A DNA stretch of 64,000 bases. It comes from Octopus sinensis (Eukaryota). The stretch spans positions 62,001 to 126,000 of the forward strand of contig NW_021833032.1 in assembly GCF_006345805.1 (NCBI RefSeq). Reading direction: 5' to 3'. The notes beneath the pieces were generated by a model, which did not search any database, was not told the origin of the DNA, and saw only the letters and a list, made by a program, of their open reading frames with translations. Position 1 is the stretch's first letter. Each line of letters opens with the position of its first letter. The translations under genes were made by a program, and so were the position numbers. This document shows, piece after piece, positions 10,068 through 61,700 of this stretch.

Positions 10068-10366
10068 GTGTGTGTGTGTGTGTATTTGTGTGTGCATGTG
10101 TATGCAGGGGCGATTGATGTTCAGTTTATCTTCGACGTTATCACTTATTAAAGCTATAATCTATTATGTTCACCACATTGAATTATCATTGAATTCAGTT
10201 TCGTAAGTGTAAATATTAAACTGAAAGTGCAATCAAAGATAAAGTCATCTCATGGAACAGGGGCCAAAGCTTGTCCTACGAAGAATTTGCAATGGGAAAG
10301 AACTTGCATTGAAGTTTCTGGTATTTTATATTTTCTTCTTTTACAGATTAATCAACGCCTGAAAAT

Positions 10367-10548
10367 ATGTTCCAACAATTGAAATTGAATTTTGTGTTGA
10401 TAATCTCTATGAGTTTCTGTTTGGAGTCTCATGCTGCATCAGACATGTGCAGCATTTGCTTCTGTGACGGTTCTCAGACAAATATAGATTGTTCATTTCG
10501 GCGACTGACTTCGATCCCGCAACCCATTCCACCAAATGTTGAATATTT
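10367..10548 (+). CDS. Coding exon 1: signal peptide, LRRNT cap and start of first LRR
   Basis: [60 protein letters not shown](L); acceptor tttacag at 10346 implies an upstream UTR exon; donor TT|gtaagt. Confidence 0.92.
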
Positions 10549-19500: not shown

Positions 19501-22500
19501 TACATGTTTGGACACACAAGAAAAATCTGGAACCAAATTGCAGTTTCATCGCCTTGTCTCGGGTGCCACTGAAACGTTAGATTTTGTATCCTCCAAAGAG
19601 GGGCGAGAAAACTTGTGGTCCGGTCAGTCTGGCTTCACTAATGACTACACCGTCCAAATCCAGTGAACTGAGGTCGTTTAGAAAGCGTCCTTACTTGAAA
19701 AATGAACCCTGTCCACGCACGTTTAAACTGCCTTGCTTGAGCAAAACAATGTTGAGAGAAATGGGAAAACAAAATGATGCACAACTTACTTTTTGGGCTG
19801 CGGCGAGGGTGAATGGTTTCTCTCACCCTTCTCGGTGGTTGTAGGAGTTTCCACGATCAGGTTTTGTATAAACTTTTGGTTATTGTTCTTTGGAAATTTC
19901 CCAGCGCAAAGGGGTAGATTTCTTTTCAAGAAATTAAGGTGTTGTTAGTTATGCTGAGTATTTGTATTTGAGGTGAAGCGTTAGGTGCTGTGATCTTTTG
20001 GTGTGATGTTGGTAGTTTTATGTATGTATTTCATTAGGGCTTCAATATGTGGATTGCAGGGAAATTTACGAAGGTGATTTCGAAGGGGATATTTGTATGG
20101 CGGGTGGTGTTGGCAGCGGTATTAGTGGTGTTTGTAATGTTGGTGTTATAGTAGATAGTTGTGTGTATGTGTTGTGGGGAGGTGCTTGGATGGTGTCCTT
20201 CATGCATTTTTTCCATTTAGGGACTTCGCTCAACTAGTGTTTGTTTCCTTCTCTGGAAGTGTCTCCTACTTGTTGCTCCTCTTCTCCTTCTTTCCCTTCT
20301 TTTTTTCTTCTTCTTCTTCTTCTTCTTCGCCCTCGCCCCTCCTCATTCTTCTTCTTCTTCTTCTTTTTCTTCTTCTCCTTCTTTTTCATCATCATCATCT
20401 TCTTCTTCTTCTTCTTCTTCTTCTTCTTCTTTTTCTTCTTCTTTTTCTTCTTCTTTTTCTTCTTCTTCATCATCATTATCTACTTCTTCTTCATCATCTT
20501 TTTCTTTTTCTTTTTCTTACCATAAATGTTCTTCTTGACACAATTTTATATTCCAGGTATTTGGCTGGTAACGAAATCGAAGAAATCAACGAAAACACTT
20601 TCCAAAATCTCTCCAGTTTAAAATATCTGTAAGTTGAATCAATCTTCTTTTATACTATTGCACTGAAGATATCTTCCTAAATCCGTAATGTCTTTCCATA
20701 CTTCAATTTAAGGTCTACATCCGTCTCTCTATACATGCATTTTATTGATTTTGGATGTTTGTGAAAGTGAGTCTGGGTCCACTTTTAAGATAGGAGATAT
20801 ATGCGAATGATTGTGACTGTGAGTGTGGTAGCATTTCTGACAGTTGGTATATATATATATATATCAGTGTGACACTTGAGGAGGCATAGTTAATGCATAC
20901 CTGTGTTTATATATAAATACTTGTCTCGGTGTATGGATGAGTGAATGGGAGTGTAAAAAAATGAGTGTGTAATTCAGTGTCTATATCATGTACGTTGTTT
21001 ACCTCGAGATCTGTGGTTCTTAACCTAGGAGCGCACCTCCTGGGGCAGGATGTGCGTCAGTAACTGTGAAGGGAGCGCGACCGCTTGCGAAAAAGTAGAA
21101 GTTTCTCTAATTATATGTGTTATTTTCTTAACGAGAACATGGTCAAATAATGACAAGTTTATGAAAAAAATGCAAAATTATCGCCTAATACCTTTAGATT
21201 TCTTATTCTACTATCTTAGCGCCACTCATCATTTTCTGTAATTTCATATCCTTGAAAACTCTCACTTATTTCTGAATTGTAGCTTTAACATTTGCCTATA
21301 TTTTAACACTTTAACATTTGCCTTTTATTTTTGTGTTGTTACAAGAAGACTCAGGTTAATAACCCCTGCTACAAGGCATAGATACTATTAACATCTTTTC
21401 CAGTTAATAGATTATAAACAAGTTTGATCCACAGTTTTCATATATATGAAATAATGTGATTCTTAAAAATCAAGAGACATGCTGAAACATTATCAAATCA
21501 TTATAGTAACATACTAAGAAATATTGACTTAATTTAACAAATTGAAAACTATTTTAAAATATTAGGAAGATCAAAAGTATTATATAATTAAAAATAGGAA
21601 ATAAAACAAAAATAATAGATTCTACTATTTCTCAATTTAATAAAGTCTCAAAACAATTAAAACACACATTAGAAAAAAATATTGGCAATAAAACCAAATT
21701 TTTTTTTATTAAATGCTTATGTGAAAGATATAGTAAACACGTTCGTAAGAAAATAATTATAATATAAAGCCAAATGTTAAACTAAAATCAAACTTAAATA
21801 TTACAGAAAGTACTAGGTAAAACTAAAACCTATGCAAAATGTTTTTTTTTCTCAAGAAACTTTTTTTTTATATTTTCGTACAAAAACTACATTTTATTGT
21901 ACAAATGTTTCGTATAACTGTTCTTTTACTCCAAATATTAAAAAAAAAATTTCAGAACTTTGTACTCAAAATGTTCCAACTTGGTCCTTGAGATAACCTT
22001 ACGCGTGTCTTACCATTTGTTCTCATATTTCTGTTGTCCACTGCACATGAAATAATTCGCAATGAGTACAGAGTAATCGAAGTATCTTGACGAATTTATT
22101 TCGATTTGGATTCGTGTCCCTCCAAACGGGTGACACAGAAGTCCCCCAGTGCGTGGTATGTTACAAAACTTTGAGCAATGATGGAATGCGACCCTCACGC
22201 TTGGAATGCCACTTGAGGACAACACATCCTACTCTTGCAGACAAGCTCAAGACATTCTCTGAAACAAAAAGAAGTTTCTTGAAGCAAGCTAGATTTGCTT
22301 GTGGGGCATTTCGGCAACAAATTTCAATAATTGTCGAGACTTCCTATGAGATCGCCATGTTGATTGCAAAGAGCAAGAAGAGCCATAATATCGGAGAGTC
22401 TCTCCTAAAACCAAGTCTACTACCTGCAGCAGAACTCGTTCAGGGAAAAGATAGTCCATACAAGCTTTCCCCGATTTCACAATCAAATGATACAGTCAAG

Positions 22501-24166: not shown

Positions 24167-25494
24167 GAAATATTTTACAAAAAGGAAATATAAAATACAC
24201 GTGGAAATGTAAGGGTAAAATATGAAAAATCAACGAAAATGCACATTGCAAATAAAAAAAGGCTATTTATGACAGGTAACGACAAATATAAACATTTAGA
24301 TTTACTGAGGTAGTGATAAGAGTCATAAAAGTCATTATTATTAGATGATTATAAGATGATAATAAAGTAAGAGAACAAAGCGAAAAACACCGGCTAATAC
24401 ACGGTGTTAGGTCTAATAGTTCCTGAGAAAAAAGATTATTTGTAAGAGAGGTAAGTAGTTCTGTATTATTTGTAAGGGAGGTAAGTAGTTCTGGATTTAG
24501 AGATGTGAGTGGTGTAGGGAGTGTATAGGGGTTAGTGGTTTCAATTGAAGAGTTAGTGGTTTCAATTGAAGAATTAGTGTTGTTCTGCATTGAGTTGTGT
24601 GTTCATATTTAGTTGGGGGAGAAATTTATTGATGAAAAATGCCTCTTTATTCAACCTTTGTTGCATTGTGGTGTTCTGTGAACATTGGTAAAAGGGAAAT
24701 ATTTGGAAATTGGGATTAAGATTCCTGGCACACCTATGTGTTCACTCACCTTTAACTGTCTGTATTGTGTGTGACGGATTTGTTCTTTGTGAATGGTAAT
24801 TCTTTGACGGAGCGAAATTTCTGTTTGTCCAATATAGAGTTTACCACATCCTATGCATGTCATGTCATAGATTACATTTACTGAGGCGCAGGTGAAATTT
24901 GATTTGATCTTAAATATTTGTCCTTGTTTGAATTGGAATTCTGAACCCTCCAGAAGGTGGAGGCATGTTCCACAGTTAGAACGTCCACATTTTGTCACTT
25001 TTGGCTCTGTTGTTAGTGGATACAGTCTAGCGCTGGTTAAAATTTTTTCAGTGACTTCGGTTGCTTTTTATAATTTTATATGAGCTCAAAGTTTCGTTCA
25101 TTGTTTTGTCTGCTGTGAGGATGGGAAGATTTTGGGTGATGATGTTGAAGGCTTAGTTGTTTCTAGGGTTATGTGGGGAAATGTACTGCAGTATTTTTAA
25201 GTCTTGTTTAGTATTTCGGCTAGTTTTCCTTAACATTTGTATATCTATTTCCTTAGCTCTTTTGATGCCTTCATTTACTAATGAGATTGGGTAATGTCTT
25301 TTAGTTAGTGTAGATCTAAGTTCAAGGAGTCTATGTTCTCGAGTGTATGTATCGGAAACTATGGTGCAGATTCTTTTCGCTAGGTTAAAGGGTATGTGTT
25401 TGGGGTGGCAGGAGTTAAATAATAGTTATTGTTTAGAATCTGTGGGTTTATAAAAGATGTCTGTTTCTATGTGGTTGTTCACTATTCTAATTAA

Positions 25495-25940: not shown

Positions 25941-28900
25941 CGTCAAACTGACAAGCCTCACTTGACATGACTATGAATTTTGTAAATAAAAACACATAAT
26001 ACGTGTATTTGCACCCTTCAAGTTTGTACTGTCGTGGAAATTGCTGTCGAGTGGTGAGTTTATTTTTCTGCTTTCTCGCCCATTTTGTGGGGACAAATCA
26101 GTTGATTTTGTTTTCCATTCAAAGTTGTTTGCGTTTAACATGGAGAAAGCAAAACAAAACACGGTGACACTCATTTGTGAGAACAGGAATGAGAGTGAGG
26201 AGCATCACCAAACGCCAATAAGAGAGAGAGAGTGCAAGAGTGGCAGACGATGGCGCGTTAGAAAAAGAAAACAGATTGCAGCTGTATTTTGGTTTTTAAA
26301 AAAAGGCAAAAAGGCAAGAAGGGCTAATTTCTTTCGAGAAAGATCTCATAAAGGAACTTTTGGAAAAACAAATATTTCATTTTCGACAACATTACTCAAA
26401 ATGAAAGCAGCAATTTCGAAAATGTAATCAATAGGCCCTTTCGTGAGTGAAGCGACGGACGATGCGAGTACAAGTAACCACAACAACAACAACAGCAGTA
26501 ATAACAACAGCAAAAACAACAGCAGCAATAACAGCAATAACATCAGTAGCACCACCAACAATAGCAGAAGTGGCAACAGCAACAACAACGATAAAAACAA
26601 CGATGGAACTGAGAAAAAAAGCTGTTGCAACGGCTTGAAGTAACTCGAAACTTTCCTTGGCTGGAGGTACCAAGTCATCTCTTCAGACAGTACAAATCTC
26701 TGAAAGGGAACATAAATATGCCAGGCAGCTAACCGAGAGAGAAGTCTTACTGTAAAGCTAAATACCCCTTTGAAATTATTCAGGTTATGCTAAGTTGCAC
26801 AGTGACGTACCGTACCATCGGATAAAAATCAAGATGGGTAGAAATATCTAAGCAGTTCAAATACAAAAGGGTGAAATCCATAGCAATAGTTACAGAAAGG
26901 AAGGGGATATAGGATGGTAGAGATCAGATTCTGCGCAAAGGAAGCTAAAATCTCACTCTCTGAATCCCCTCGAATTCCCTATTTTGAGCCAGACGAAATG
27001 TGCGTTCCTCTCCAAGCTCTCATGAATAATCATGAATGAATTAGCGAAGATGAAATTCTATGTTTTAACATAGCTCAGGATTGGAAGCTCATGAAACATT
27101 GGAATAAATTTCAAACCGAAGGTTTTAAAGTTATATTTGAAAGATTGAGTAAGAATTCTGGTCAAACCTCTGGTTTTAGGCACCATGAGTTACTCCTTGT
27201 TTGCCAAAGACTTTATCAACCATTTTCCTGCCTTACCACAAGATTTCTTGTGGAAATTCTCATCAATGTCCTATTCCCACGTCCTAAAAATGGAGGTTCG
27301 AGGGCTTTCAGATACGTGTGGGGCTACTCACAAACTGTTTTACGATCAGTTCATGCCAGATACTGACGTCCAAAGGGCTCAAACTAGGTGATGAATGAGG
27401 CCAAGTGCCCTTATCCTAAAACCTTTTCGCAAACTCATCCATGGGAAACATTTGTCTCACTACACTTGTGTCACAAAGAAGATCCTCTTACCATCAGAGA
27501 TCATGCAGTTGAAAATTATCACTTGGACACTTTTGGCTTTCTCGTGAGCTGAAACCAGAACTCAGCTGTCGCGTCGGTTTGTGTGCATATCCTGGTTGAA
27601 TATCTTCTCACTCGAAGGTTGTGTTTCACTTTGTCGCAGATGAACTTCGCCCTCTCTCTAATCATCATCTACATTTACATTTTTTAATTATATCTATTTT
27701 TTTCGTCATAATATTTAACATTTTGACACTAAACTTTTCTATATGTTTGTTATGAACTCCGTTTTATGTTTCAGGGATTTGTATGGCAATAATATAAAGT
27801 ATATTCAACGCGGTACCTTCGAAAACCTTCAAAATTTAGAAGAACTGTGAGTTGGGTCGCTTTTGTTCGTACCATCTATTTCCCAATATATCTATATTCT
27901 TAATATTTTCTCCAACTTTGTTTTCTATCTCTCTTTCTAGAGTGTATCTGTCTAACAACCGTTCACTCTCTCCATAGTTTTCTCTGAGTGTATGTGTGAA
28001 TGCGTGTTTGTGAAAGTGTAGGCGTGTGGATGAATGAGCTTCTTTTTTACTTACTTCTTATGCATAGGTAATCATGTTCTTGTTTCTAAACATCCGTTTA
28101 CCTAATATTCAAATTCTCATTATTCAGCTATATTCTATCATTTTTTCTCGTTCTTTACTTCTTTATTCTAGTTTTCTAAGTTTATCTTTTAATCTTCATA
28201 TGTTTATGTGTATGGATGTACAGACACCGAGTATATCAGAAAAAAGTGTTCAAATTTTAGATAGAACTTCGGAACGTTGTGTCTCAGTATCACTGAAAGG
28301 TAACAGAACTATCAGCGGCTTTTCTAACACAAATGGATCCTATTTTGAGCAAGACGATATGTGAGTTCCTCTCCAAGCTCTCATAAATAATCATGAATGA
28401 ATTGGCGAAGATGAAATTCTATGTTTTAACATAGCTCAGGATTGGGAGCTCATGAAACATTGGAATAAAGTTCAAACGGAAGGTTTTAAAGTTATATTTG
28501 AGAGATTGAGTAAGAATTCTGGCCAAACCTCTGGTTTTTAGGCATCATGAGTTACTCCTTGTTTGCCAAAGACTTTATCAACCATTTTCCTGCCTTACCA
28601 CAAGATGTCTTGTGGAAATTCTCATCAAAGTCCTATTCCCACGTCCTAAAAATGGAGGTTCGGGGGCTTTCAGATACGTGTGGGGCTACTCATAAACTTT
28701 TTTACGACCAGTTCATGCCAGATGCTGACGTCCAAAGGGCTCAAACCAGGTGATGAATGAGGCTAAGTGTCCTTATCCTAAAACCTTTTCGCAAACTCAT
28801 CCATGGGAAACATTTGTCTCACTACACTTGTGTCACAAGGAACATCCTCTTACCATCAGAGATCATGCAGTTGAAAATTATCACTTAGTCAGGTGTTTGC

Positions 28901-31900
28901 CCCTAAACTGACACTTTTGGCTTTCTCGTGAGCTGAATCCAGAACTCAGCTGTCGCGTAAGTTTGTGCGCATATCCTGGGTGAATATCTTCTCACTCGAA
29001 GGTTGTGTTTCACTTTGTCGCAGTTGAACCTCGCCCTCTCCAATCTTCTAAACTTTTGTCCTGGAGTATCAAGACTCCTCACAAGTTTCATATGCGATTT
29101 CATTTTCACTTCTTCTGTCGCCAGATGCCAATAAACTTATGGATTGATTTGGATCTCTTCTGATCGATCTCTTCAGCTCCAGATTGAAATGATCTTTCTT
29201 GAGGTAATGACCTCTTTATGTAGCTTTCCTCTCTACTATTCCATCTTTCTCAAACTTATACACAATTGTCTTGATATTCATTGAATGAACTTTGAAGATG
29301 GAATCTAGAGAATGAATTTCGGTACCATTACTGAAGGACTGAATGATCTTAACCCTCTCAACCTTACTCAGTCGGGTGTGGCTGACACAAAACTATTTCA
29401 TCCTGTTAACTTTCTAGCTAAATATCTCAAATGGTATTTCACTGATTCTTATAAAAACGGGTGTCAGTATGTCCAAACACCTTATGTGCAAAACATGTAA
29501 CAAAAAGCAAAAAGTGTGTTAGTTTAAAATTGTTCAAGAGTATTTGAGCATGGCAGGTTTGCTGTTACACCTGTTATATATTCATGTCTAAGTATATGTG
29601 CGAGTGCGTGTGAATGTATCAAATCTTAACCTATTCTCCATCATCATCACTAGAAACTTCACTAGCACGAACGTCAACATGAAAATCATCATCATTATCT
29701 TCAAAATTATCCTCATTAGAATCATTATCACAATCAGCACCAGCAACATTTTCTTCAACACTACCACATTCTTCCTGTCTTAAGACTGAAAACTATATAC
29801 GACGACGACGTCTGGCACCACCACCTCTCCTCCTCCTCCTCCTCCTCCTCTCCTTCACCAACACCACCATCAGATTCTCTTGTGAAAAGAAACTGCGAAA
29901 AAGCGAAACCAAATCACATGAAAATATAAAAACGAACACTAGTGACTTCTACACATTTCAAAAGTATTTACCTTAGTGCGCAATAACCTATGGCCAGGAG
30001 GATAAGCGAAATACTCAATTAACAATTCGCAAATGCTTTCAATTCCTCATTAGAAAATATGCAAATAAGCAAGGTTGATAAGTTCCTCAGAAAAGAAAGA
30101 AAACATCTGTTATTTCGATGTGAACTTAGTCACGGCTCTATTACAGGTATAATTCTCTGATCCCACATATTAGGTAAGTTATGAGACTCGTTGTCGGAAA
30201 GTAGTTGATTACATTTCGAGAACGAAACCTATTCACTAACATACAGAATGGCTTCTGTCCAGGAAGGAGTTGTCTTACTCAGCAGCTACTGGAATGTGAC
30301 TGGGTACTGAAACAACAGGTGAACTTTTCAAATATGGATGATATCTGGACATCAATATTCCAACATCAGCCATCTTTAACCAGTCTGCAATTAACATGTT
30401 AATGTTTTTAATTTGTTGTGAAGTGTTTCAATATGCGTAGATTTGTAATATTAACAGATTTTTCTTGCAGTCAGAACCTTGTGCGGGTGACCAAATATAT
30501 ACTATATCATGATTGCCAGAGTAGAGGCTTCATTATTACGTTAAGAGTTTTGGAAGAACACCTGTTAATGAAACAATGTGGACATTAGTTAGTTCTATAT
30601 GATGCTTATTTTTGTCATTAAGCGAATGCCACAAAGTTTCTGACCATTTTTGACCAATAGCAGTACTGAGTATTGGATAACTAGAATTTTATTTGAAAGT
30701 ACTTTTTTAGTATGCTGGCATCCGGAATCAGTAAATGTATCATGTTTAACTAGTGTACTTTACGGGTAATTCATGATACTATATAGTATTTTGCACATTT
30801 TACCTATTTTCTAGTATTTAAATAAGATTTTAAAGTATTATTTCCCGTGAAGTAGAATTCAAGTGTCTATGGACTGATACTATTAGGTCGTCAAGTATGA
30901 AATTTGTACTAAGGTATATGGTAAAATTTGATAGCTTCTCGTTTTGCGCCATTATTATATTTTGATAACCTATATTTGTTTTAGAAAGCTGACGCATCTA
31001 GTTCTTTATACTTTGCGCTTTATAAAGTATTTATTAATCGCTTTTTGCTATTTTTGTTTAGGGATGGATAAGTCAGAAATTCGTACAGTTTTTAAATATG
31101 AGTTCTCTTTTGGAAATACAGCATCACTGATAGCTCGGAATATTAGTAGGAAATTTCATTCTAATGTTATTACACAGCAGACAGTATCAAATTGGTTTGC
31201 AATATCTAGTTCTGGTAATTTTGATTTCTCAAATGAACAATGCGATCGACCAGAAACAAAGTTGGATATTTTCGAACTGAAAGCAACCATCGAGTCTGAT
31301 CCATCTCAAAGTGCCTGTGAATTATTGTTGTTGTTTTATGTAAGCAAGCAATATTGACTCACCTAGTTCAAATCGGTAAAGTGAAAACTTTGGATAAGTG
31401 GCTTCGACATGAATTCAATGAAAATCAGAAATAGGAACGTCTGAAAGTCTGCATTATGCTAGTTTCTCGTCGCAAAAATGAATTATTTTTTAATCAAATT
31501 GTAGCGTGATGAGAAATCGATCCAATGCCACAACTGTAGAGGTTAACCACAATGGCTGGACAAAGATGAGCTACCAAAACATAGTTCAAAACGCAAAAAA
31601 GCTGATGGTGTGTGTTTGGTGGTCTGGTCCAGGTCTGATCCTTTATGATATCATTAACCCTGGCTCATTAATCTCAACCGAAGTACACTGCAGCCAACTG
31701 GAACAAATTATGCACAAACATACAAAAACAACCTAGATTAGTCAACAGATCACTCCTATTTTACTGCAAGACAACGCCGGATCATAAATCGAAAAAATAA
31801 CTTTGGCGAAACTACAGGGTTTCGAGTTGGAAGCTCTCCTTCATCTACCTACTCACCCGATATTGCCCCCACTGACTACCACATCTTTCAGAATTTCACT

Positions 31901-34322
31901 AACTTTTTGCTAGGAAAAAACATTAATTCCGATGATGCTATAAAACAAGCCTTCCAGGAATTTATTGTCTCTAGACTGCCAGGCGTTTATAGTTCCGTGC
32001 TGCACAGGCTATCGCTGAAATGGCAAAAGTGTATTGAAAATATGGGTGCATACATTGAAGAATAAAACTATTCCTTGTATTTACAAAACATTGGTTTTCG
32101 ATAATTTTCATACTTGACGACCTAATATGAAAGAAGATACATGTTTTTCTAAACAGTTAAGAGACAAACATTAATTCCTACATATATTTTGAATATGTTT
32201 CTTAAAGTTGTGAATTGGTGTTAAGATAAATGTTTTAATTATTCATGATTGATTTTTGCAATTTCGTCATTATATTGCTCCTGGAATATATAATATTTGT
32301 ACATTCGATGAGAATGTGATGTAAAACCAACATCGTGCACAAAACAATGTCTCGATGTCTTGTTATTCTTATAGCTTATTTTCGGCCATCTTTTGTTAAT
32401 CGGTTATCACAGAAACCTTCTCTTCCCTCAGGATATCTAAGTGAGAATAATGGAAACTACTCTTGTCCAAACTATAGGCAGAAACCTCATAGAGAAATAA
32501 ACATCTTTGTAGTAAACATGTGCTTCTATTTGGTTAGTTTAGACAGTATATTAAAAGTAGAAAACAGACTTATTAATTGTACATATTTTAACTTATAGAA
32601 TACTTGTTTCTCTTTTCCAGATATTTGGGAAACAACCAAATACGAAATTATGAGGATGGCGCGTTCTTATTCCTTCCCAGTATTTATAACATGTATGTAC
32701 AACAATTCTTTCTTTATTGGAAAACCAAAAGTTTGTGTAAACACATGAATAGATGCCATCAGACTAAAATCATAAAAAATGATATCATCAAATTCACAGA
32801 TATTCAATACAGTTGACAATAAATAGCAATGTTTTGGTTTTCATTTTAATGTGGCACCATGAATATTTCTGAGTATTGTGTTTTGTCATTGCAACGTCAG
32901 TGTTCAAACAACATGAAGGTTGGTTTGATATAGTTTCATCCATGTTCGGAAATACGAGGTGTATTCAAAAGGCGTCCAATATTTGGCTAGAAAAGTATCC
33001 AACCTTTGTACATTTCATAAATTTTATTTAATCTTCTTCAAAATACTCCTCTTGGGATTTCACTCACTTGTCTCAAGTTTTGTCATTGATTCTTTCATTT
33101 CTGGAACACCTTGTTGAGAGTGTTATGCAGCTCTGCTGTCCTCTCTCCACTCGGATCGCTTCTCTTTCAGCGTCGTTTTTACTTGTGGAAAGAGTCAGAA
33201 GTCACATGGCCATGTGGGGAGAGTTGGGAGCCTAACGAAAAAGGGGTCTGTTGCTTTTGATCATGAAAGCTTGGATTACGAAGTGCATTCAAAATGTATC
33301 TGAATTTATGTTTTCGCTGGTATTCGCTGCATGTACAAATCCTCCGTTAAATTATAATACACTGATCCTCTGCTTATTTCAACTTCGTGAATAATTCCCT
33401 GGATTGTTACATTACGATCTGCGATGACTAATTACCGAAGCTTCTCAATCAGCTCCTCGTTTTGCCTTCTTTATGGCCTGCCTCAGCGTGCTTCGCTCGC
33501 CTCTGAGGTTCGGCCAATTGTACCACTCTTTGTTCTACGATTTGCCCATCATTAATAAGAGCCTGCCGAATCTAGTCGTTGGTGTAAGTTTGAGTAACAG
33601 CCTTCTTCGACACTAAATGCAATATCTCTGCCCGATGTACCCCTAACACCCAGAGACTGGTGCAGCATTTCCTGTTTTGACATTCACTTAACAAACATCC
33701 TAAATTAAGCACCACATGGATTTAATCACATGGATCTCAATCCTCCAAGGTAATTTTTCCAAGAACTATCATTGAACTCGAGATACACAAACATTTTACA
33801 ATGTTTCGGTGAACCTATTTTTAAATTTTTGTATATGTTTATTATTTTTTGCAAAAAACAATGTAATTTTCTGTTTTCCCCATCTTCAATTATAAAAACA
33901 ATTTCTTTTCACCTTATAATTCTTGAAAAGTCGCATTGCCACGAAAAAACCGGTTTGAATTGATATATATATTTATTTTTTTAAAAAATTTTCCATACAC
34001 CCATTATCAACACAACCCCACCATTTATTGATTTATATATAAGTATATATATATATATATATACATATATATACGTATATATGTATATATATATATGCAT
34101 ATATGTATATATATATATGTATATATGTATATATATGCATATATATATGTATATATATATATATATATATATGTATATTATATATGTATATATATATGTG
34201 TATATATATATAGGTATGTATATATATATATATGTATTGATGTATATAAATATATATGTATATATGTGTATATATATGCATATATGTAAATATATATGTA
34301 TATATATGTATATATATGTATA

Positions 34323-34361
<39 letters not shown>

Positions 34362-35089
34362 GCATAGATTTATATATATACATGTATACATATATGTATA
34401 TATACATATATGCATTTATATAAATAACAATTCATAGCTTGCTGTCTAGGTGGGTGGATGTTTGTCTACTAGCTTGTTAGTCGCTTGCTACCTGTCTGGC
34501 TGGCTGGCTGGTTGGTTGGTAACTATAGGGAAAGAGAATTACCAAAAGCTCCACGTTCTGGAAACAAATTCAAAATAACAGTTGCGTCCACATATATTTT
34601 TTTGGAACTTTAAATAGACGAAGCGAATGGTAGGTTGTGTTTTATGTCTACAGAACTGGGTTGGTGTCCCACGATAAACATTGGAATTGTTTGTATCGAA
34701 AATCGTTTTTAACCCAATGTTCCCAATTTGAAGTAGAAAAAGATCCAGAGAGAAATATTTAGTCAATGCCCTCATCTAAGACATTTCCTACTTCAAACTT
34801 GGAATTCCCCATTCGTTGAATAGTCCTACCACAGTTCTTTCGAATATCGTCAAGAGCAAAGCCCCGATGTATGGAGACAACACAATCATGCTAATCCAGT
34901 CCTGCCCGCAGCATCGATAATTTATTTCTTCTTTACGAAACTAAGTAACCGTGGCGTATTTCTTCCTCCAGTTTCCAGAGAGGTTATGCGTCTTCAGACA
35001 TTTGACACTGACGAGGTGACATTGCTGCTAATCGCTTTGTAGGCGCGAAATTAATGGTGCTTATCTTTCGTATACATGTACTACAGACG

Positions 35090-35120
<31 letters not shown>

Positions 35121-38100
35121 TAAAAGGAATTCCAACCTTGTCTGATTTTCACGTTTTATTTACAATCTTATAATGATATATTATAAGATAATATAATATA
35201 ATAGAATAAAATAAAATAAAATAGTAGAATGCTAAATGTTCATTCTGATTGAACTAGTACTTTCATACATTAATTTCTGCAATCTTCAGGTTTATGTAGT
35301 AGTGGTGACAGTCATGCTTCACAAATTTTGACTGTAGCAAGATGATTGAATCTGTGCCTTAAATACAGATGGGTAGGCACCAGATTGCTAGGTTTTGCAA
35401 ACTGTATTCTGACCAATCAGTGTGTAGTATCACTCAATTACTTAAGCTGATTGGTTGGTTGAGCTGATTAGTTTAGGCGTCACGCCTTGTTGAACATGTC
35501 AAGAGTCCTGTAACTTGACCCTGGGCGAGGCAGCAATTGTTGGGCTATTTTTAGAAATGTTGTAAATAGCCTTTGTCAGAGATTTTTATATTTTTATGTT
35601 TCAATTGTCATCATCATCATTGTCAGTACCTTAATTATTGTTGCTAGTGGTGATGGTGGTGGCAATAGAACTTTTAACCCTAAATAAGATAATTTTCCTG
35701 CTATCCAGGTATTATTATTATTGCTTATTTAGCTTGGGTTCGAATTTATCAATAAAATTCTTTTCTCTAATTTTCCTCTCGATTTCACTTGGGTTGTGTA
35801 ATTTATAGAATGGAAATATTATATATATTTTCCGACCACATGTTGCTAGGTGGTTACTCAAAGGTATCTGACGGACCTCTGGGTCTCTAATCTGTTGTCG
35901 GTGTACACGTGAGCGTTCTGATAGTGCATTTCCCGTCTGACCTACATATATTTCTTCACAATTTGGGCATTTGATGCAGTAACTTAAATTTCTGCTTTCG
36001 CAGTTCATATTCGCGTTTGTGAATATTTTCCCGGTTTTTGTATTTATATATTGGCCGGTATGTATGAATTGGCATTTATATTAGACACAGTCAAACTTAT
36101 TCTAGAAAACAACACATTCTCCTTCAATGGAAAGAATTACATCCAAATTAGAGGCACGGCGATGGGAACGAGGTTTGCTCCCGTTTACGCCAACTCTGTA
36201 ATGGGATGCTTAGAACAACAACTCTACCAAGAGGTGGAGGTAAACTATGGCACTGGATTTAGAAAGTATATTGAAAAGGCATGGAAGACTGCTTCATAAT
36301 CTGGACAGAATCTCTAAATACTCTGGAAGAGTTCAATATCCTCCTGAACAACCTACACCCATCTCTCCAATTTACAAAGGAGATAAGTAGTACCAAATCA
36401 CCATTCCTAGATATAACGGTAATTAAAAAAGACACCACCATCATCACAGATATATTCTATAAACAGACAGACACACATCAATGACTAAATTTTAAGTCGT
36501 GCCATCCACCACATACAAAAAGCAATATCCTATACTGCCTAGCCAGAAGAATTTGTACCATTATAGAAGATGCAAATATCATGATCAAACGCCTAACAGA
36601 ACTAAGAGAATATTTGCTCAAACAAAAATACCCATACAACAACTTAGGACAACCCAAGGAAGAGGAAAACAAGAACAAGTCATACCATTCATAGTGACAC
36701 ACAACCCATGTCACCAGATAATCTTCAACATTACCAAAGAAAACCTGCCAATCATTGCCCAAAATAATGAATTAAAAGACATAATCACGGATCGAGCTAT
36801 GTTTCTTAGTAAAAGACAGCCTAAAGTCTTGAGAAAATTACTAACAAAGGCAAAATTTGAGATTAGCAACAAATTTCTTAATTATATTTAATTTCTTTCG
36901 TCATAATATTTAACATTTTGACACTAATCTTTCCTATATGTTTGTTATGAACTCCGTTTTATGTTTCAGGGATTTGCATGGCAATAATATAAAGTATATT
37001 CAACGCGGTACCTTCGAAAACCTTCAGAATTTAAAATATCTGTGAGTTGGGTCGCTTTTGTTCGTACCATCTATTTCCCAATATATCTATATTGTTAATA
37101 TTTTCTCCAACTTTGTTTTCTATCTCTCTTTCTAGAGTGTATCTGTCTAACAACCGTTCACTCTCTCCATAGTTTTCTCTGAGTGTATGTGTGAATGCGT
37201 GTTTGTGAAAGTGTAGGCGTGTGGATGAATGAGCTTCTTTTTTACTTACTTCTTATGCATAGGTAATCATGTTCTTGTTTCTAAACATCCGTTTACCTAA
37301 TATTCAAATTCTCATTATTCAGCTATATTCTATCATTTTTTCTCGTTCTTTACTTCTTTATTCTAGTTTTCTAAGTTTATCTTTTAATCTTCATATGTTA
37401 TGTGTATGGATGTACAGACACCGAGTATATCAGAAAAAAGTGTCCAAATTTTAGATAGAACTTCGGAACGTTGTGTCACAGTATTACTGAAAGGTAACAG
37501 AACTATCAGCGGCTTTTCTAACACAAATGGACCCTATTTTGAGCAAGACGAAATGTGAGGTCCTCTCCAAGCTCTCATAAATAATAATGAATGAATTGGC
37601 GAAGATGAAATTCTATGTTTTAACATAGTTCAGGATTGGGAGTTCATGGAACATTGGAATAAAGTTCAAACGGAAAGTTTTAAAGTTATATTTGAAAGGT
37701 TGAGTAAGAATTTTGGTCAAACCTCTGGTTTTTAGGCATCATGAGTTACTCCTTGTTTGCCAAAGACTTTATCAACCCTTTTCCTGTCTTACCACAAGAT
37801 TTCTTGTGGAAATTCTCATCAATGTCCTATTCCCACGTCCTAAAAATGGAGGTTCGAGGGCTTTCAGATAGGTGTGGGGCTACTCATAAACTTTTTTACG
37901 ATCAGTTCATGTCAGATGCTGACGTCCAAAGGGCTCAAACCAGGTCCTTATCCTAAAACCTTTTCGCAAACTCATCCATGGGAAACATTTGTCTCACTAC
38001 ACTTGTGTCACAAGGAACATCCTCTTACCATCAGAGATCATGCAGTTGAAAATTATCACTTAGTCAGGTGTTTGCCCCTAAACTGACACTTTTGGCTTTC

Positions 38101-41100
38101 TCGTGAGCTGAATCCAGAACTCAGCTGTCGCGTAAGTTTGTGCGCATATCCTGGGTGAATATCTTCTCACTCGAAGGTTGTGTTTCACTTTGTCGCAGTT
38201 GAACCTCGCCCTCTCCAATCTTCTAAACTTTTGTCCTGGAGTATCAAGACTCCTCACAAGTTTCATATGCGATTTCATTTTCACTTCTTCTGTCACCAGA
38301 TGCCAATAAACTTATGGATTGATTTGGATCTCTTCTGATCGATCTCTTCAGCTCCAGATTGAAATGATCTTTCTTGAGGTAATGACCTCTTTATGTAGCT
38401 TTCCTCTCTACTATTCCATCTTTCTCAAACTTATACACAATTGTCTTGATATCATTGAATGAACTTTGAAGATGGAATCTAGAGAATGAATTTCGGTACC
38501 ATTACTGAAGGACTGAATGATCTTAACCCTCTCAACCTTACTCAGTCGGGTGTGGCTGACACAAAACTATTTCATCCTGTTAACTTTCTAGCTAAATATC
38601 TCAAATGGTATTTCACTGATTCTTATAAAAACGGGTGTCAGTATGTCCAAACACCTTATGTGCAAAACATGTAACAAAAAGCAAAAAGTGTGTTAGTTTA
38701 AAATTGTTCAAGAGTATTTGAGCATGGCAGGTTTGCTGTTACACCTGTTATATATTCATGTCTAAGTATATGTGCGAGTGCGTGTGAATGTATCAAATCT
38801 TAACCTATTCTCCATCATCATCACTAGAAACTTCACTAGCACGAACGTCAACATGAAAATCATCATCATTATCTTCAAAATTATCCTCATTAGAATCATT
38901 ATCACAATCAGCACCAGCAACATTTTCTTCAACACTACCACATTCTTCCTGTCTTAAGACTGAAAACTATATACGACGACGACGTCTGGCACCACCACCT
39001 CTCCTCCTCCTCCTCCTCCTCCTCTCCTTCACCAACACCACCATCAGATTCTCTTGTGAAAAGAAACTGCGAAAAAGCGAAACCAAATCACATGAAAATA
39101 TAAAAACGAACACTAGTGACTTCTACACATTTCAAAAGTATTTACCTTAGTGCGCAATAACCTATGGCCAGGAGGATAAGCGAAATACTCAATTAACAAT
39201 TCGCAAATGCTTTCAATTCCTCATTAGAAAATATGCAAATAAGCAAGCTTGATAAGTTCCTCAGAAAAGAAAAAAAACATCTGTTATTTCGATGTGAACT
39301 TAGTCACGGCTCTATTACAGGTATAATTCTCTGATCTCATATATTAGGTAAGTTATGAGACTCGTCGGAAAGTAGTTGATTACATTTCGAGAACGAAACC
39401 TATTCACTAACATACAGAATGGCTTCTGTCCAGGAAGGAGTTGTCTTACTCAGCAGCTACTGGAATGTGACTGGGTACTGAAACAACAGGTGAACTTTTC
39501 AAATATGGATGATATCTGGACATCAATATTCCAACATCAGCCATCTTTAACCAGTCAGCAATTAGCATGTTAATGTTTTTAATTTGTTGTGAAGTGTTTC
39601 AATATGCGTAGATTTAACAGATTTTTCTTGCAGTCAGAACCTTGTGCGGGTGACCAAATATATACTATATCATGATTGCCAGAGTAGAGGCTTCATTATT
39701 ACGTTAAGAGTTTTGGAAGAACACCTGTTAATGAAACAATGTGGACATTAGTTAGTTCTATATGATGCTTATTTTTGTCATTAAGCGAATGCCACAAAGG
39801 TTTTTCCATTTTTGACCAATAGCAGTACTGTGTATTGTATAACTAGAATTTAATTTGAAAGTACTTTTTTAGTATGCTTGCATCCGGAATCAGTAAATGT
39901 ATCATGTTTAACTAGTGTACTTTACGGGTAATTCATGATACTACATAGTATTTTGCATATTTTACCAATTTTCTAGTATTTAAATAAGATTTTAAAGTAT
40001 TATTTCCCGTGAAGTAGACTTCAAGTGTCTATGGACTGATACTATTAGGTCGTCAAGTAAGAAATTTGTAGTAAGGTATATGGTAAAATTTGACAGCTTC
40101 TCGTTTTGCGCCTTTATTATATTTTGATAACCTATATTTGTTTTAGAAAGCTGACACATCTAGTTCTTTATACTTTGCGCTTTTGTTAATCGGTTATCAC
40201 AGAAACCTTCTCTTCCCTCATGATATCTAAGTGAGAATAATGGAAACTACTCTTGTCCAAACTATAGGCAGAAACCTCATAGAGAAATAAACATCTTTGT
40301 AGTAAACATGAGCTTTTATTTGGTTAGTTTAGACAGTATATTAAAAGTAGAAAACAGACTTATTAATTGTATATATTCTAACTTACAGAATACTTGTTTC
40401 TTTTTTCCAGATATTTGAGAAACAACCAAATACGAAATTATGAGGATGGCGCGTTCTTATTCCTTCCCAGTATTTATTACATGTATGTACAACAATTCTT
40501 TCTTTATTGGAAAACCAAAAGTTTGTGTAAACACATGAATAGATGCCATCAGACTAAAATCATAAAAAATGATATCAAATTCACAGATATTCAATACAGT
40601 TGACAATAAATAGCAATGTTTTGGTTTTCATTTTAATGTGGCACCATGAATATTTCTGAGTATTGTGTTTTGTCATGGCAACGTCAGTGTTCAAACAACA
40701 TGAAGGTTGGTTTGATATAGTTTCATCCATGTTCGGAAATACGAGGTGTATTCAAAAGGCGTCCAATATTTGGCTACAAAAGTATCCAACCTTTGTCCAT
40801 TTCATAAATTTTATTTAATCTTCTTCAAAATACTCCTCTTGGGATTTCACTCACTTGTCCCAAGTTTTGTCATTGTTTCTATCATTTCTGGAACACCTTC
40901 TTGAGAGTGTTATGCATCTCTGCTGTCCTCTCTTCACTCGGATCGCTTCTCTTTCAGCGTCGTTTTTAGTTTTGGAAAGAGACAGAAGTCACATGGCGCC
41001 ATGTGGGGAGAGTTGGGAGCCTATCGAAAGAGGGGTCTGTTGCTATTGATCATAAATGATTGGATTACGAAGTGCATTCAAAATGTATCTGAATTTATGT

Positions 41101-42066
41101 TTTCGCTGATATTCTCTGCATGCACAAATCCTCCGTTAAAATATAATACACTGATCCTCTGCTTATTTCAACTTCGTGAATAATTCCCTGGATTGTTACA
41201 TTACGATCTTCGATGACTAATTACCCAAGCTTCTCAATCAGCTCTGAGGTTCGGCCATGTTTGAAGTGGTTGTACCACTCTTTGTTCAACGTTTTGCCAA
41301 TGGCATCATCAATAAGAGCCTGCCGAATCTTCTCGTTGATGTCAGGTTGAGTAACACTCAGTCTTCTTCGAAACTAAATGCAATATCTCTGCTCGATGTA
41401 CCCGTAACAACAGGGGACTGGTGCAGCCTACCGGCGTGGGACACTGATGCGCCATACCGGCGTGTAATACCAAGGCGTCAGGCTGGCGCGGCATATTAGC
41501 GAGGAAAGTTCCAGGCATATGCAGGAAGGATGGCGTCACATCCCACCTAAAGGATTTTGCCCACGAAGCATAAGTTTTGGCGAAACAATCATACATTTTG
41601 AATGTATTTCGTACATAAAATAAATTGAAACTGGTTCACAGGTATACACATACACACACACACACACGCACACAGACATTTAGAAGATTCAAAAGCTGGA
41701 GGATAGCTGTGAAAAGGTTAGAATGTTGAGTGAAAATACACTTTCAAGATGAGGTAAAGGAGCCAGTAAGTAGACTCAAACTGAACAATTCAAATTCTAC
41801 ATGAGCAGTCAGCACCATTGAGCTATATGATCAATGCTAGTAAACGGTGCCTTTAACAAGGTTAAATTATAACGTTTGGAATGTGGATGCATTTTTCATA
41901 AACAAACATCAAAGTTTTGAGTGTGTTCGATTCTCTCTCTCTCTCTATATATATATAATTATATATATACATATATGCTGATACCCTCTTCGGTCATGAC
42001 TGACCATGGGATTGCACCTAGAATGTTACCCTCCCAGGGCAAGTCCGGGAGGGCAAGATTATTATG

Positions 42067-42129
<63 letters not shown>

Positions 42130-42195
42130 TATATATGCATATATATGTATAATATGTATATATATATATGTATGTATACATATATGTATATATAT

Positions 42196-42243
<48 letters not shown>

Positions 42244-42282
42244 CATGCATAGATATATATGTATACATATATGTATACATAC

Positions 42283-42344
<62 letters not shown>

Positions 42345-43080
42345 ACATATATGTATATATACATATATGCATATATATAAATAACAATTCATAGCTTGCT
42401 GTCTAGGTGGGTGGATGTTTGTCTACTAGCTTGTTAGTCGCTTGCTACCTGTCTGGCTGGCTGGCTGGTTGGTTGGTAACTATAGGGAAAGAGAATTACC
42501 AAAAGCCCCACGTTCTGGAAACAAATTCAAAATAACAATTACAAAATCCTTAACCACACAGCCTTACTTGCGTCCACATATATTTTGTTTGGAATATTGA
42601 AACTTTAAATAGACGAAGCGAATGGTAGGTTGTGTTTTATGTCTACAGAACTGGGTTGGTGTCCCACGATAAACATTGGAATTTTTTGTATCGAAAATCG
42701 TTTTTAACCCAATGTTCCAAATTTGAAGTAGGAAAAGATCCAGAGAGAAATATTTAGTCAATGCCCTCATCTAAGACATTTCCTACTTCAAACTTGGAAT
42801 TCTCCATTCGTTGAATAGTCCTACCACAGTTCTTTCGAATATCGTCAAGAGCAAAGCCGATGTATGGAGACAACACCATCATGCTAATCCAGTCCTGCCC
42901 GCAGCATCGATAATTTATTTCTTCTTTACAAAACCAAGTAACCGTTGCGTATTTATTCCTCCAGTTTTTGGAGAGGTTATGCGTCTTCAGACATTTGACA
43001 CTGACGAGGTGACATTGCTGCTAATCGCTTTGTAGGCGCGAAATTAATGGTGCTTCTCTTTCGTATACATGTACTACAGA

Positions 43081-43122
<42 letters not shown>

Positions 43123-46100: not shown

Positions 46101-47462
46101 ATGCCTTCCTGTTATAGGTTCAGAGCTCCCTTGAATCATCTTCACTCAAGGCTTTAGGGACAGAAAATTGCGTGTAAAATGTTTTACTCAATACCTGAGG
46201 CACCAAATTGCCTCCATATAATTTCTGGCACCAAACCGCCCCTAATCCATCATTTAAAGGGATCGGTTTACGTGGTTCTAAATATGCTCCTTGTTTAAAT
46301 TAACTTTTATTATTTAAGACATAAGCTATAAGAGAGTAGGAACTTAATATATTTTCGGTTTCCACCAGAAACCATATCGATTTATTGCTGTTATCAACAC
46401 CTGGCACGAAATATGAATGTCGTTAATTATATTCTTGCTGGAATTATATTATCCTTCTTTCTTGTCAAATACAACAGCAGTTTCTCTTTACCTCTCAAGT
46501 ACATTCACTTAGGGTTTTGTTTATAATTTCAGTGATCTAAGAAACAATAAAGATATGATGTGTGGATGTCACCTGCCAGCCTTGGTAAATTATACTAAAT
46601 CAAAATTCAGCAGAACTGTGTGGGTCGACGGCGAGTGTCAGACAGATCCAGGCAATAACCAAAGCAAAATTATACCTATAATGAAATACTCGCAATGTCA
46701 AAGTTAGTAAAATCTTCCTTGTTTTTGTTATTTAATTATTAGCACTAACAACGTCGGCGAGTTAACACAATCGTTGGCCCGCCGGACAAAACGCCCAGCA
46801 ACATTTCGTGCAACGTTACAGTCATAGTTCAAACTCCGTCCAGAACGATTTTGCTTTTAACCCACTCGGGATCGATAACATAAGAATCACTTGAACGCTG
46901 TGGTCGATGTAATCAACTAAATCTCTCCACACAATATTTCAGGCCATGTGCCTAATTGCCATAAAGAGAACTCGGGATATTCTCTCCTGCTCATAATATG
47001 TATGTAAATATATATATGTACACATACATACCCACACATACACACACATATACAGAGTGGCTCTGTGGTAAGAAGCTTGCTTCCCAACCAAATGGTTCCG
47101 GCTTTAGTACCACTGCATGACACCGTCCGACTAAGGCCTTGTGAGTAGATTTGGTAGAGGGAAACTGAAAGAATCCCATCGTGTATATACATATATATGA
47201 GTGTGTGTGTGTTTGTCTATCTGGGCTTGTCCCACTCACCATCGCTTGATAGCCGATGCTGGTGTGTTTACATCCCCGTAACGTGGCTGTTCGTCAAAGT
47301 AAACCGACAGAATAAGTACTAGGCTTACAAAGAATAAGATATGGGATCGATTTGTTCGACTAAAGGCGGTACTTTAGCATGGTCGCAGTCAAATAACTGA
47401 AACAAGTAAAAGAATAAAGAATAAGAGAGTATAAAACACACAGGCACACGCACAGACACATG

Positions 47463-51091: not shown

Positions 51092-51122
<31 letters not shown>

Positions 51123-52230: not shown

Positions 52231-52269
<39 letters not shown>

Positions 52270-58741: not shown

Positions 58742-61700
58742 CTGTGTGTCTGTGTGTAGTTTCTCCTGATGACCCCACAAGCCTGCTAGTTTCCAGTATT
58801 ATCAGTGTCTTTTTCCGAACCGCTAGGTTATGGCGAGGTAAACACAGCAACATCAGTTGCCAGAAAATTTTAATGACATTCATAGATTTTATAAAGGAGT
58901 TCATTCTACAAAAACATAAATCACCAGTTTAGCATTATTTCCCTTTATTTGAGTTGTTCCACAATTTTCGCGCTTTTTGTGAGAGCAAAATACAAATAGA
59001 AAAGACCATCAAATAGCTTCCATAGTATTCTTCGTTGAATTTCTAACAACTGAAATAATTGTAAATGAAAGTCGTAACATGCTCTTATAGTCTTCATTAA
59101 TAATTTTCTTTAAATATCTCACATGTATTGATTCCAACCTTAACACTTTTACATTTGGTTTACACCACAAAGTGTTTATTTCCTCTTATTCTTATACATT
59201 ACATATTTGGTTCCTAATACGAATATTTTTGTATTGTATAGATTACTCGTTATTTCAACGCAATTTGCAGTGTCAAACATGTTCAGCTTTTACGTGCAAG
59301 GAATCAGAAATGACAAACTGTATAGGCGATGAGGTAAGCTGAAATGTTACATTCTTCTTTTTAATATACACTTAACCCTCACTTAAAGCCAATATGGCTA
59401 CGTAACCTGTCCCAAGATTTAGCAAGTTGTTATAGGTGCCCATGAAATCGTAAGTAGATACATACATCCTCTCAGTCTTTCCATCCTTGAATCAGCAGAA
59501 CATAGATTAGTGGAATGTGTGAACATACGTGTCTTGGAGTCAGCTTGGAAGCTTGTTCAGGGACCTCCGATCGCATGACTTATGAGATATTCCTGTATCT
59601 TAGAATTTTCGTTTGAACGATGGCTATGTTATCAGGCAAGTCACTGATTTCAAAGTACGGGCAGTTATTCTCCACATCTGTGCTACCAGATGCTCCACAA
59701 CGATGTTCTGAAAGCAATGCATTCGTACAGTGAAGGTGGTATTCCCAGTTTAGTAGTTGTGTGATACCTCTGTGTGAAGGGGGATCGATTTCTCAGGGCA
59801 TCAGAAAGTTTTCCTAGGGAACCCTCGATCTCAATTAGGTGAATTTGAAACTGCACTTTATACACAAGGCTGTGTGAGAGTAATGCAAAGAAGGGGCTAC
59901 AGAGAACATCGAAATCCTGCTTTAACGGTTCCAGGGGTCTATAGATTTACGACTGGATTTTACTGATGTAACTGTACAGACTCGGAGCATCCCAGATTGG
60001 TCATCTTAATCGGATCTTGAAAGAGTGTTAGGCCAGCAGATAAGGATAGTGTAGGATACCCTTAGTTTGAAGTGGAAGTTGGACGTGTGTCTTCGAACTT
60101 GCAAAGATTACAGGGGTTACACTAATAAATTTGTGAAGCAATACAATAGTTGAAAGGGATTATCATCCACGACCAGTGGTAGTGCGTCCTTAAAGGGACG
60201 AAGAGGACATTTAAGTTAAAGAGCGTTTAGCGAAGTGCTATCGATAGGGTCCACGCAGAGATATGAAGCTTTCCCACAGCATTTCGTTCATCTGTTCGGG
60301 ACAGGCAATGGATCGGAGACAGTAGTGTTCTGCAGTACTTATATCGATGGACTATCGGCAGATGTGAAATGTAGCGAGAAGCCGATTACATCATTTGAAA
60401 TATTGAGAGCAATAGACTCTTGCACAAGGCGTAAATAGTCCAGTTTGGATGGTCTGCCTTTCAGGTTTTAGTAATACATGCCAGACGAAATCATTCTGCA
60501 GTCACTCGTTCAATGTCCGGATATTGCTGATTTGTGGAGTTATGATAAACAACTCCTGTCTGATGGGGGACGGTTCTGGCTATCAACCGAGTACAGCATG
60601 ATGAATGCTCCGCCACCAAACTTTAATCAGAGTAGGGAAAGTAGTTTTCCTCTGTCTGGTGACTATAACGAAGGAGGTTGAGTGTAAGATGTAAGTTATG
60701 AGTTCTAAGACATTCCTCTTTTGGTCGACGCCTCATTGACCTCTTCAAGATTCAATTACGAAATAAATTGTGTGTGGAGAGGAAGGTGCTGTCCATAAGT
60801 GAATTTATTGAAAGGTTGGTGAAAACGGTTGACGTTGCAAGAGCGAATGGCACTGCTCTAAACGTATAGACCCGTGTGACGGAAGAAAATTAATTGGAGA
60901 GGGCAGTTGCCCTTAATATTCAGGGTGAGGTTGGATGGTGGGGTTCTTCGATTGGTTCCAGAGGTCCTCCTTCATTACGAGGATCACATCACCATCGTCT
61001 TTAAACTCGTATGCCATTCTCTTTTATATTGTATACCGTGCATGCTTATTTGCATATATTTACGATTCCATTCTATGAGCATCCACACACTTTATGTCTT
61101 TATTTGTATTGGTCACTCATCAGTCGCCCATTACCAAAATACAAAAATGATTATTACAATCATTATTATTGGGATAAATCCAACTTTACCAGAAATAATT
61201 ACTTCACGTTTTTTTTAAAGTTTATAAATTATTAAGACGTCAGCAACATAGAATTTTCGCTGAAAACAATAAAGTTTCTAAAACGGGTAGAGAGATGCGA
61301 AGGATTGCCTTGGTCTGATGTTACAACACCAATCATGATAACAGGAGATGTGGGTTCGAATTCCGCAGGTAGCCTCCGACACCATTTTTATCCAAAGGGT
61401 TTTCTAAACCAATATTAATACTCTATTATTTATAGCTTGCCTAATTCAAGATTCATCGTTTCAAGAAAGAATTATCAAGAAGTGTGATGTTTTTCAGTGA
61501 TTCTTCATGATCTGGGATATTTTCTCTCCAACTTTTATGCGAATATTGTGTATCTTCATTTTATTGCAATAGAATATGCATGCCGAGGAGAAGCATATAC
61601 TACACCTTTTTTTCCCCAAAACCTAAGTGTTTAAGTCCAGCCCTTTTTTTGATTATCCTTATTTACGGCAGTTACCGCTGCGCTTGTTTCTGTTGTTGCT

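Follow-up and report, generated by a model that had tools for sequence, protein, structure and literature searches.

Duplicated leucine-rich repeat (LRR) exons within a 64,000-nucleotide window of the Octopus sinensis genome (NCBI RefSeq assembly GCF_006345805.1, contig NW_021833032.1, positions 62,001 to 126,000 of the forward strand; positions below count from the first letter of this window unless a contig is named) are predicted to be part of an adhesion G protein-coupled receptor (GPCR) gene belonging to the octopus-specific 'group 3' expansion. The two duplicated exon pairs are weak evidence taken alone, but comparisons across the paralogous family strongly support diversifying selection on the residues of the concave LRR face, as judged from codon changes; the suggestion of such selection, made in an earlier note on this DNA, thus holds family-wide with the note's own pairs excluded. 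We consider that the exons probably encode the LRR tip of the receptor, and that the excess of concave-face change in the family likely results from selection for binding to external partners that themselves change fast, with microbes or parasites the most likely ones.

Each repeat of this gene corresponds to one exon. All five LRR exons (exons 2 to 6) are 72 nt long, in phase 2 and bounded by AG/GT, with the exon boundary cutting inside the β-strand motif of each repeat, and an LRR exon can therefore be duplicated without loss of frame. Exon 3 (copy A) differs from exon 5 (copy B) at five nucleotides (exon positions 8, 58, 65, 68 and 70, that at 58 being silent), giving Y>H and EE>KY, and exon 4 (copy A) differs from exon 6 (copy B) at two (exon positions 8 and 68), with G>R and N>Y as the result. 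The five residue changes lie at positions 7, 2, 3, 7 and 3 of LxxLxLxxN, so that the earlier note was right both in its counts and in placing every change at position 2, 3 or 7. Concave codons hold 22% of the nonsynonymous sites (31% without the core), and the probability that four events are all concave is 0.002-0.009, a post hoc value. Seven differences in 144 nt have a P of 0.035 at a background of 2.1% and of 0.36 at 4%, and since the A/B introns diverge by anything between 0 and 5%, this count is not clearly high. Thus, the two pairs alone, with about four events, are thin evidence. The low divergence of the intron following exons 3 and 5, to which the note had also pointed, is real (one substitution, at 27899, within the first 350 nt) but belongs to a mosaic of 0-5% per 200 nt that includes a 954-nt stretch free of differences; these 350 nt are therefore an unfair neutral baseline and were rejected as one.

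The note had further proposed exon-level conversion, with the last 12 nt common to exons 5 and 2 as its sign. The shared 12 nt are present as described, and short-patch exchange is moderately supported in that one three-base difference, the KY tail, sets apart the members of two independent sister pairs: at exon positions 65, 68 and 70 the G/A/T bases (EE or KY) distinguish copy A from copy B and likewise distinguish the paralogous exons at C27:18307884 and C27:17835544, which have one intron difference in 191 nt. Exon 2 need not be the donor, and as the specific donor it was rejected, the 12-mer being unspecific (found in 5 of the 189 family exon copies) and a longer match being available: exon 5 is identical to the exon-3-type paralogue C27:17835544 from exon position 58 through 38 nt of intron, i.e. 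over 53 nt as against 12-14 nt for exon 2. We read the KY tail, from these alignments, as one exchanged patch that may have moved in either direction; because the patch is common to the paralogue, EE/KY counts as one event and not as two or three. Matched depths between tables suggest that one contig of run X4 combines the KY tail with paralogue-type intron bases, and that another X4 contig has the upstream intron of copy B with Tyr instead of His, so that Y>H looks recent. The N/Y difference at position 3 of the terminal-type exon recurs among paralogues. Contigs placed on copy A are dominated by paralogues, and the alleles of exon 3 itself could not be confirmed.

For the family test, exon matches were drawn from about 0.85 Mb around the best matches, together with the search loci. 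Among 193 matches one with a stop was removed, and identical exon-plus-flank copies were merged to leave 189, which were matched into disjoint pairs, each of nearest neighbours in terms of intron distance (20% at most). In the 54 resulting pairs, one of which is the same copy fetched twice and contributes no differences, the proportions of nonsynonymous (pN) and synonymous (pS) change were 0.298 and 0.121 at concave codons, 0.014 and 0.093 at core codons, and 0.084 and 0.138 at other codons. A pairwise codon model of 46 non-identical pairs, with the focal copies left out, gave nonsynonymous-to-synonymous rate ratios (omega) of 4.93, 0.14 and 0.89 for concave, core and other codons (likelihood ratio test against omega = 1, p 9e-26), the core value being biased low by construction as the exon filter demanded scaffold residues, and the concave value being unfiltered. 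Concave omega was 4.41 (p 1.3e-17) when multi-nucleotide (double and triple) changes were allowed, and with branch lengths fixed the individual values at positions 2, 3, 5, 7 and 8 ranged from 3.9 to 6.8, each with a lower bound of at least 2.7. The excess was also found in the 28 pairs confined to chromosome-scale contigs (pN 0.337 versus pS 0.147, p 2.7e-9) and in the 10 pairs of terminal-type exons (p 5e-6), and it persisted against an intron baseline of 0.114 that was unused in the pairing. As controls, pN/pS was 0.85 for LRRCT exons (5 pairs), 0.64 for first exons (6 pairs) and 0.47 for GAIN-TM (transmembrane) exons (one pair). Silent divergence at concave codons (0.121, versus 0.093 and 0.138 elsewhere) is ordinary and is not raised at exon ends, and codons 6, 9 and 1, interleaved with the variable ones, keep conserved residues with no raised silent change; a mutational or splicing effect at the exon ends is therefore unlikely. 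In O. vulgaris and O. bimaculoides, 34 of the 49 differences in 10 protein-level pairs fall at positions 2, 3, 5, 7 and 8, a weak check only, as the pairs were selected on the other positions. Separately, the first codons of the LRRCT exon (L001-L010) and a few LRRNT residues of first exons (L182-L193) also look variable, extending the concave surface.

The receptor identity of the gene is predicted from homology. Beyond the end of the window, the same contig carries three SEA-like exons followed by HRM, GAIN/GPS and TM1-2 exons (G000:C9503:126233-166423, tblastn), and a tblastn search with the homologue P0003 (Pfam 7tm_2, GPS, LRR_8) returned from C9503, in this order, exons for LRRCT, Ly6, HRM, GAIN, GPS and TM1-2. 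The GPS exon (C9503:157839-157991) shares 63% identity with the GPS of P0003, which is Pfam-positive, and the GAIN exons are open; TM1 and TM2 are present, the contig stops about 5 kb further on, and later TM exons are seen in a C27 paralogue. The ectodomain is thus long and modular, with LRR, Ly6-like, SEA-like and HRM exons. Its SEA-like region has a ferredoxin-like fold and matches the SEA region of TMPRSS6 (Z 9.1, root-mean-square deviation 3.6, 109 aligned residues), and the Ly6-like region, predicted with a local distance difference test score (pLDDT) under 50, is a putative assignment based on its Cys pattern and weak sequence matches. In the TM exons, identity is 63-68% to P0042 (A0A0L8GYU7) and 32-34% to non-octopus receptors. 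A0A0L8GYU7 is placed in adhesion GPCR group 3 in supplement 2 of PMC6408891, and group-3 membership of the present gene is accordingly predicted by similarity to that protein rather than from a tree. In two ectodomain searches all of the returned proteins (6/6 and 29/29) came from Octopus species, Pfam found no ROC-COR GTPase domain in the homologues, the downstream exons of the gene encode GPCR domains, and a protein atlas search gave no usable match. The genome has 65 matches to the first exon, 58 to the LRRCT exon and 43 to the TM1 exon, counts that are lower bounds and may include haplotype contigs; 43 TM1 against 58 LRRCT matches does not suggest, for the family taken together, that most members are without the membrane part. 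The number of LRR exons rises from 5 in this gene to 42 in one C8 array. In that array (G000:C8:71257448-71378049) many of the exons follow a three-exon periodic pattern, and in one paralogue the LRRCT exon is present twice, in tandem (G000:C27:17804220 and 17817992). The Ly6-like exons at 59242-62322 differ from G000:C27:17797480-17800565 by 14 nonsynonymous changes and 1 synonymous change; the C27 copy lacks two cysteines and may be decaying.

The structural evidence comes from a model of the paralogue P0004 rather than of the window's own spliced protein. Its repeats have pLDDT mostly above 90, with strands at positions 3-5 of each repeat, and it matches structures of the Nogo receptor, of a variable lymphocyte receptor (VLR) and of Slit2. 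The five variable strand-turn residues correspond to the usual LRR binding face as described in PMC3138743, and the VLR binding face is likewise located at concave strand-turn residues (PMC3900441). Contigs of runs X15 and X17, which we guess to be RNA, join family LRR exons without introns to one another and to the LRRCT exon; they derive from relatives and not from the window's gene. In one X15 contig an exon matches exon 5 without a difference over 61 nt and departs from it at positions 5, 2 and 3.

In this gene a two-exon cassette was duplicated, the phase-2 exons allowing the frame to be kept, and scaffold residues stay conserved while positions 2, 3, 5, 7 and 8 change. Based on these observations, we hypothesize that short tracts swapped between paralogous exons provide concave variants ready for use, the KY tail being an example, and that the concave change would be driven by selection for new specificities of binding. 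In line with established adhesion GPCR biology, a ligand that binds to the tip or pulls on it would signal via the GAIN domain and the seven-transmembrane (7TM) region. Microbes or parasites as the ligand class, placed ahead of an endogenous identity code, are a guess with about an even chance of being right. A larger extrapolation is rather unlikely, namely that octopuses have evolved a germline repertoire of variable receptors comprising dozens of adhesion GPCRs, in which LRR modules of one exon each undergo duplication, patching by conversion, selection at the binding face and combinatorial splicing, as a G-protein-coupled counterpart of lamprey VLRs that would recognise microbes at skin, sucker and gill.

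Several points weigh against selection by external partners as the explanation for this gene and family. The ligand of this receptor is a guess, and expression and splicing of the gene itself are presumed, no RNA run having been listed as containing this stretch. The sample comes from one assembly and from the surroundings of the best matches, conversion can render the pairs non-independent, and the excess is borderline both in exon-3-type pairs (n = 3, p 0.051) and in pairs internal to the C8 gene (p 0.051, n = 8, with a ratio of 1.5). Positions 10 and 12 have an omega of about 1.9, mildly above 1, the remaining positions being at most 1.3. The expression of group-3 genes, often in the axial nerve cord, fits a neural role (PMC6408891). 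The gene copy itself may not be an intact receptor: its contig ends after TM2, and its first SEA-like exon (G000:C9503:126233-126326, L082) has 94 nt, versus 95 nt in the three closest paralogues, the difference lying at an A run. This shortfall is possibly a real frameshift or a long-read or assembly error; one further displayed paralogue is likewise out of frame. The block of three SEA-like exons begins and ends in phase 1 and is missing in P0003 and the C27 paralogue, so that its skipping would preserve the frame.

If selection is real, its target might still be an octopus protein, as in a diversified code that specifies cell identity or wiring in the nerve cord of the arm, the skin and the suckers, or in a self/non-self or chemotactile system. 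Group-3 genes show enrichment in axial nerve cord, suckers and skin, and the authors suggest that they act alongside protocadherins (PMC6408891); for A0A0L8GYU7, nerve cord accounts for 0.52 of the expression (PMC6408891 supplement), and the best fold matches are neuronal LRR proteins. We nevertheless regard an octopus partner as unlikely, since repeated recent change of the binding face together with varying repeat number is generally seen more in conflicts with foreign partners. One LRR-bearing group-3 gene of O. bimaculoides, moreover, has 0.71 of its expression in skin; others of the LRR-bearing members are expressed mainly in salivary gland and nerve cord, or have broad expression (PMC6408891 supplement). 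The sole squid sequence in these data is expressed in the light organ (0.84) and accessory nidamental gland (0.16), and one file assigns it to group 3 but another to group 0 (PMC6408891 supplement), and a skin-mucus study names an adhesion GPCR G6 protein (PMC11431876), which is not tied here to the octopus LRR family.

It is improbable that the pattern arose with no positive selection at all, through conversion that shuffles exon ends between diverged repeats and homogenises introns and exon middles, so that a boundary located in the strand mimics concave selection. The KY patch shared with a paralogue and the mosaic A/B introns would be expected from such a process, and changes within one exon end are indeed correlated (47 pairs: p 0.0035; the 24 closest pairs: p 0.08). 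However, the codons interspersed with the variable ones (6, 9 and 1) have no amino-acid change and no rise in silent change, and concave codons have no rise in silent change either; the adjacent positions 2 and 3 change jointly no more than by chance (p 0.6), and the multi-hit model retains an omega of 4.4. Patch exchange therefore contributes but does not explain everything. An artefactual A/B pair, made of tandem haplotypes or consensus errors, is very improbable, even though the contig is unplaced and only 171 kb long, the copies contain homogenised tracts, no run contains half of copy A's words and no contig covers both copies. A unique spacer parts the copies, and its junction with copy B (36872/36873) is bridged in two runs of two studies, by an X2 contig of 125 nt with no difference and by an X4 contig with two differences and a gap, and is therefore real DNA. 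The variant bases, in addition, recur in paralogues and in runs X4 and X15, and the family result is independent of the A/B pairs.

The octopus-specific expansion of group 3 was described by Ritschard et al. (2019, PMC6408891), with LRRs in 5 of 22 sequences and with positive selection at branch level but no selected sites. The present family resembles it in the similarity of its TM exons to a listed member, in its tandem clusters and in its LRRs, whereas the available part of that paper gives no account of one-exon-per-repeat arrays, of Ly6-like or SEA-like domains or of concave-face selection. Brown algal ROCO LRR-GTPases likewise have one 72-nt exon per LRR, a repeat number that varies via exon duplication, and positively selected concave sites (PMC3341825, PMC11378527), but they are algal ROC-COR GTPases and not an animal GPCR bearing a signal peptide; the intronic and inverted spare LRR exons and the alternative splicing reported there (PMC3341825, PMC11378527) are not shown for the octopus gene. 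With VLRs the family shares LRRNT, 24-residue LRRs, a terminal repeat and LRRCT, a similar fold and variability on the concave surface. The gene, which the earlier note had not identified, is an adhesion GPCR and neither a VLR-like nor a plant-type receptor. In VLRs, somatic assembly inserts cassettes into a germline gene that is incomplete, and the C-terminus is an invariant stalk, whereas the octopus exons are ordered, spliceable (AG/GT) germline exons that continue into Ly6-like, HRM, GAIN and TM exons, and family members appear spliced exon to exon in the RNA-like contigs. The vertebrate ADGRA receptors GPR124 and GPR125, which are few and conserved, also combine LRR, HRM, GAIN and 7TM in one protein, with an Ig domain between LRRCT and HRM where the octopus family has Ly6-like and SEA-like regions.

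Adhesion GPCRs are generally viewed as conserved developmental and mechanosensory receptors. A family of them in which an omega of 4-5 is restricted to the binding face of the LRRs resembles, in this behaviour, a receptor of immunity or recognition, and offers a testable candidate for octopus recognition of microbes or non-self, in which five positions per repeat are named for mutation. As concave-face selection is already well known in LRR receptors, the novelty is limited to the receptor class and the lineage; our literature search, which left most subscription papers outside reach, found no paper on such selection in octopus adhesion GPCRs, and the single paper that it did find on this expansion (PMC6408891) detected no selected sites.

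Coordinates within the window of the predicted exons and of the features of the tandem duplication
Feature	Position	Strand	Evidence or remark
Exon 1: signal-peptide-like N-terminus and LRRNT cap	10347..10548	+	ATG at 10367; Pfam LRRNT weak, E 0.021
Exon 2: LRR exon, 72 nt, phase 2	20557..20628	+	
Exon 3: LRR exon, 72 nt, copy A	27775..27846	+	Tyr at position 7, EE tail
Exon 4: LRR exon, 72 nt, terminal type, copy A	32621..32692	+	now internal
Exon 5: LRR exon, 72 nt, copy B	36970..37041	+	His at position 7; KY tail as in paralogue G000:C27:17835544
Exon 6: LRR exon, 72 nt, terminal type, copy B	40411..40482	+	
Exon 7: last strand and LRRCT cap	46533..46702	+	homologues found
Exon 8: first half of putative Cys-rich Ly6/uPAR-like domain	59242..59333	+	
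Exon 9: second half of putative Ly6/uPAR-like domain	62139..62322	+	Pfam UPAR_LY6_2 E 0.038; LYPD1 structure E 0.019
Duplication copy A (two-exon cassette)	27679..35117	+	self-BLAST blocks 97%, 91%, 90% identical
954-nt stretch with zero A/B substitutions	29120..30074		0/20000 simulations reached it
Mariner-like fragment in part of copy A missing from copy B	about 31022-32389		HTH_48
Spacer with Penelope-like retroelement fragments	35118..36872	GIY-YIG on -, reverse transcriptase-like remains on +	Pfam GIY-YIG E 1e-5; six-frame reading
Duplication copy B	36873..43110	+	self-BLAST

Copies A and B share 108 derived intron sites in comparison with four paralogues and are therefore sisters. The 954-nt identical stretch is either a conversion tract or the result of consensus homogenisation. 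The 1.75-kb spacer places Penelope-like fragments in opposed orientations exactly between the copies, which suggests an element-associated duplication. A repeat of about 700 nt occurs in three copies that are 89-92% identical (26978-27656, 28339-29040 and 37532-38215), one of them lying immediately upstream of copy A. Within the intron that follows the LRRCT exon is a 1-kb inverted repeat, 97% identical (52255-53298 and 55419-56461), and an ACAT array of 1.9 kb lies at 49210-51121. Transposon remains at 907-1860, 22066-22503, 24651-25067 and 30935-32130 comprise a long interspersed nuclear element-like open reading frame (recognized by eye, with no Pfam match), a weak BED-finger, a GIY-YIG domain and a mariner helix-turn-helix.

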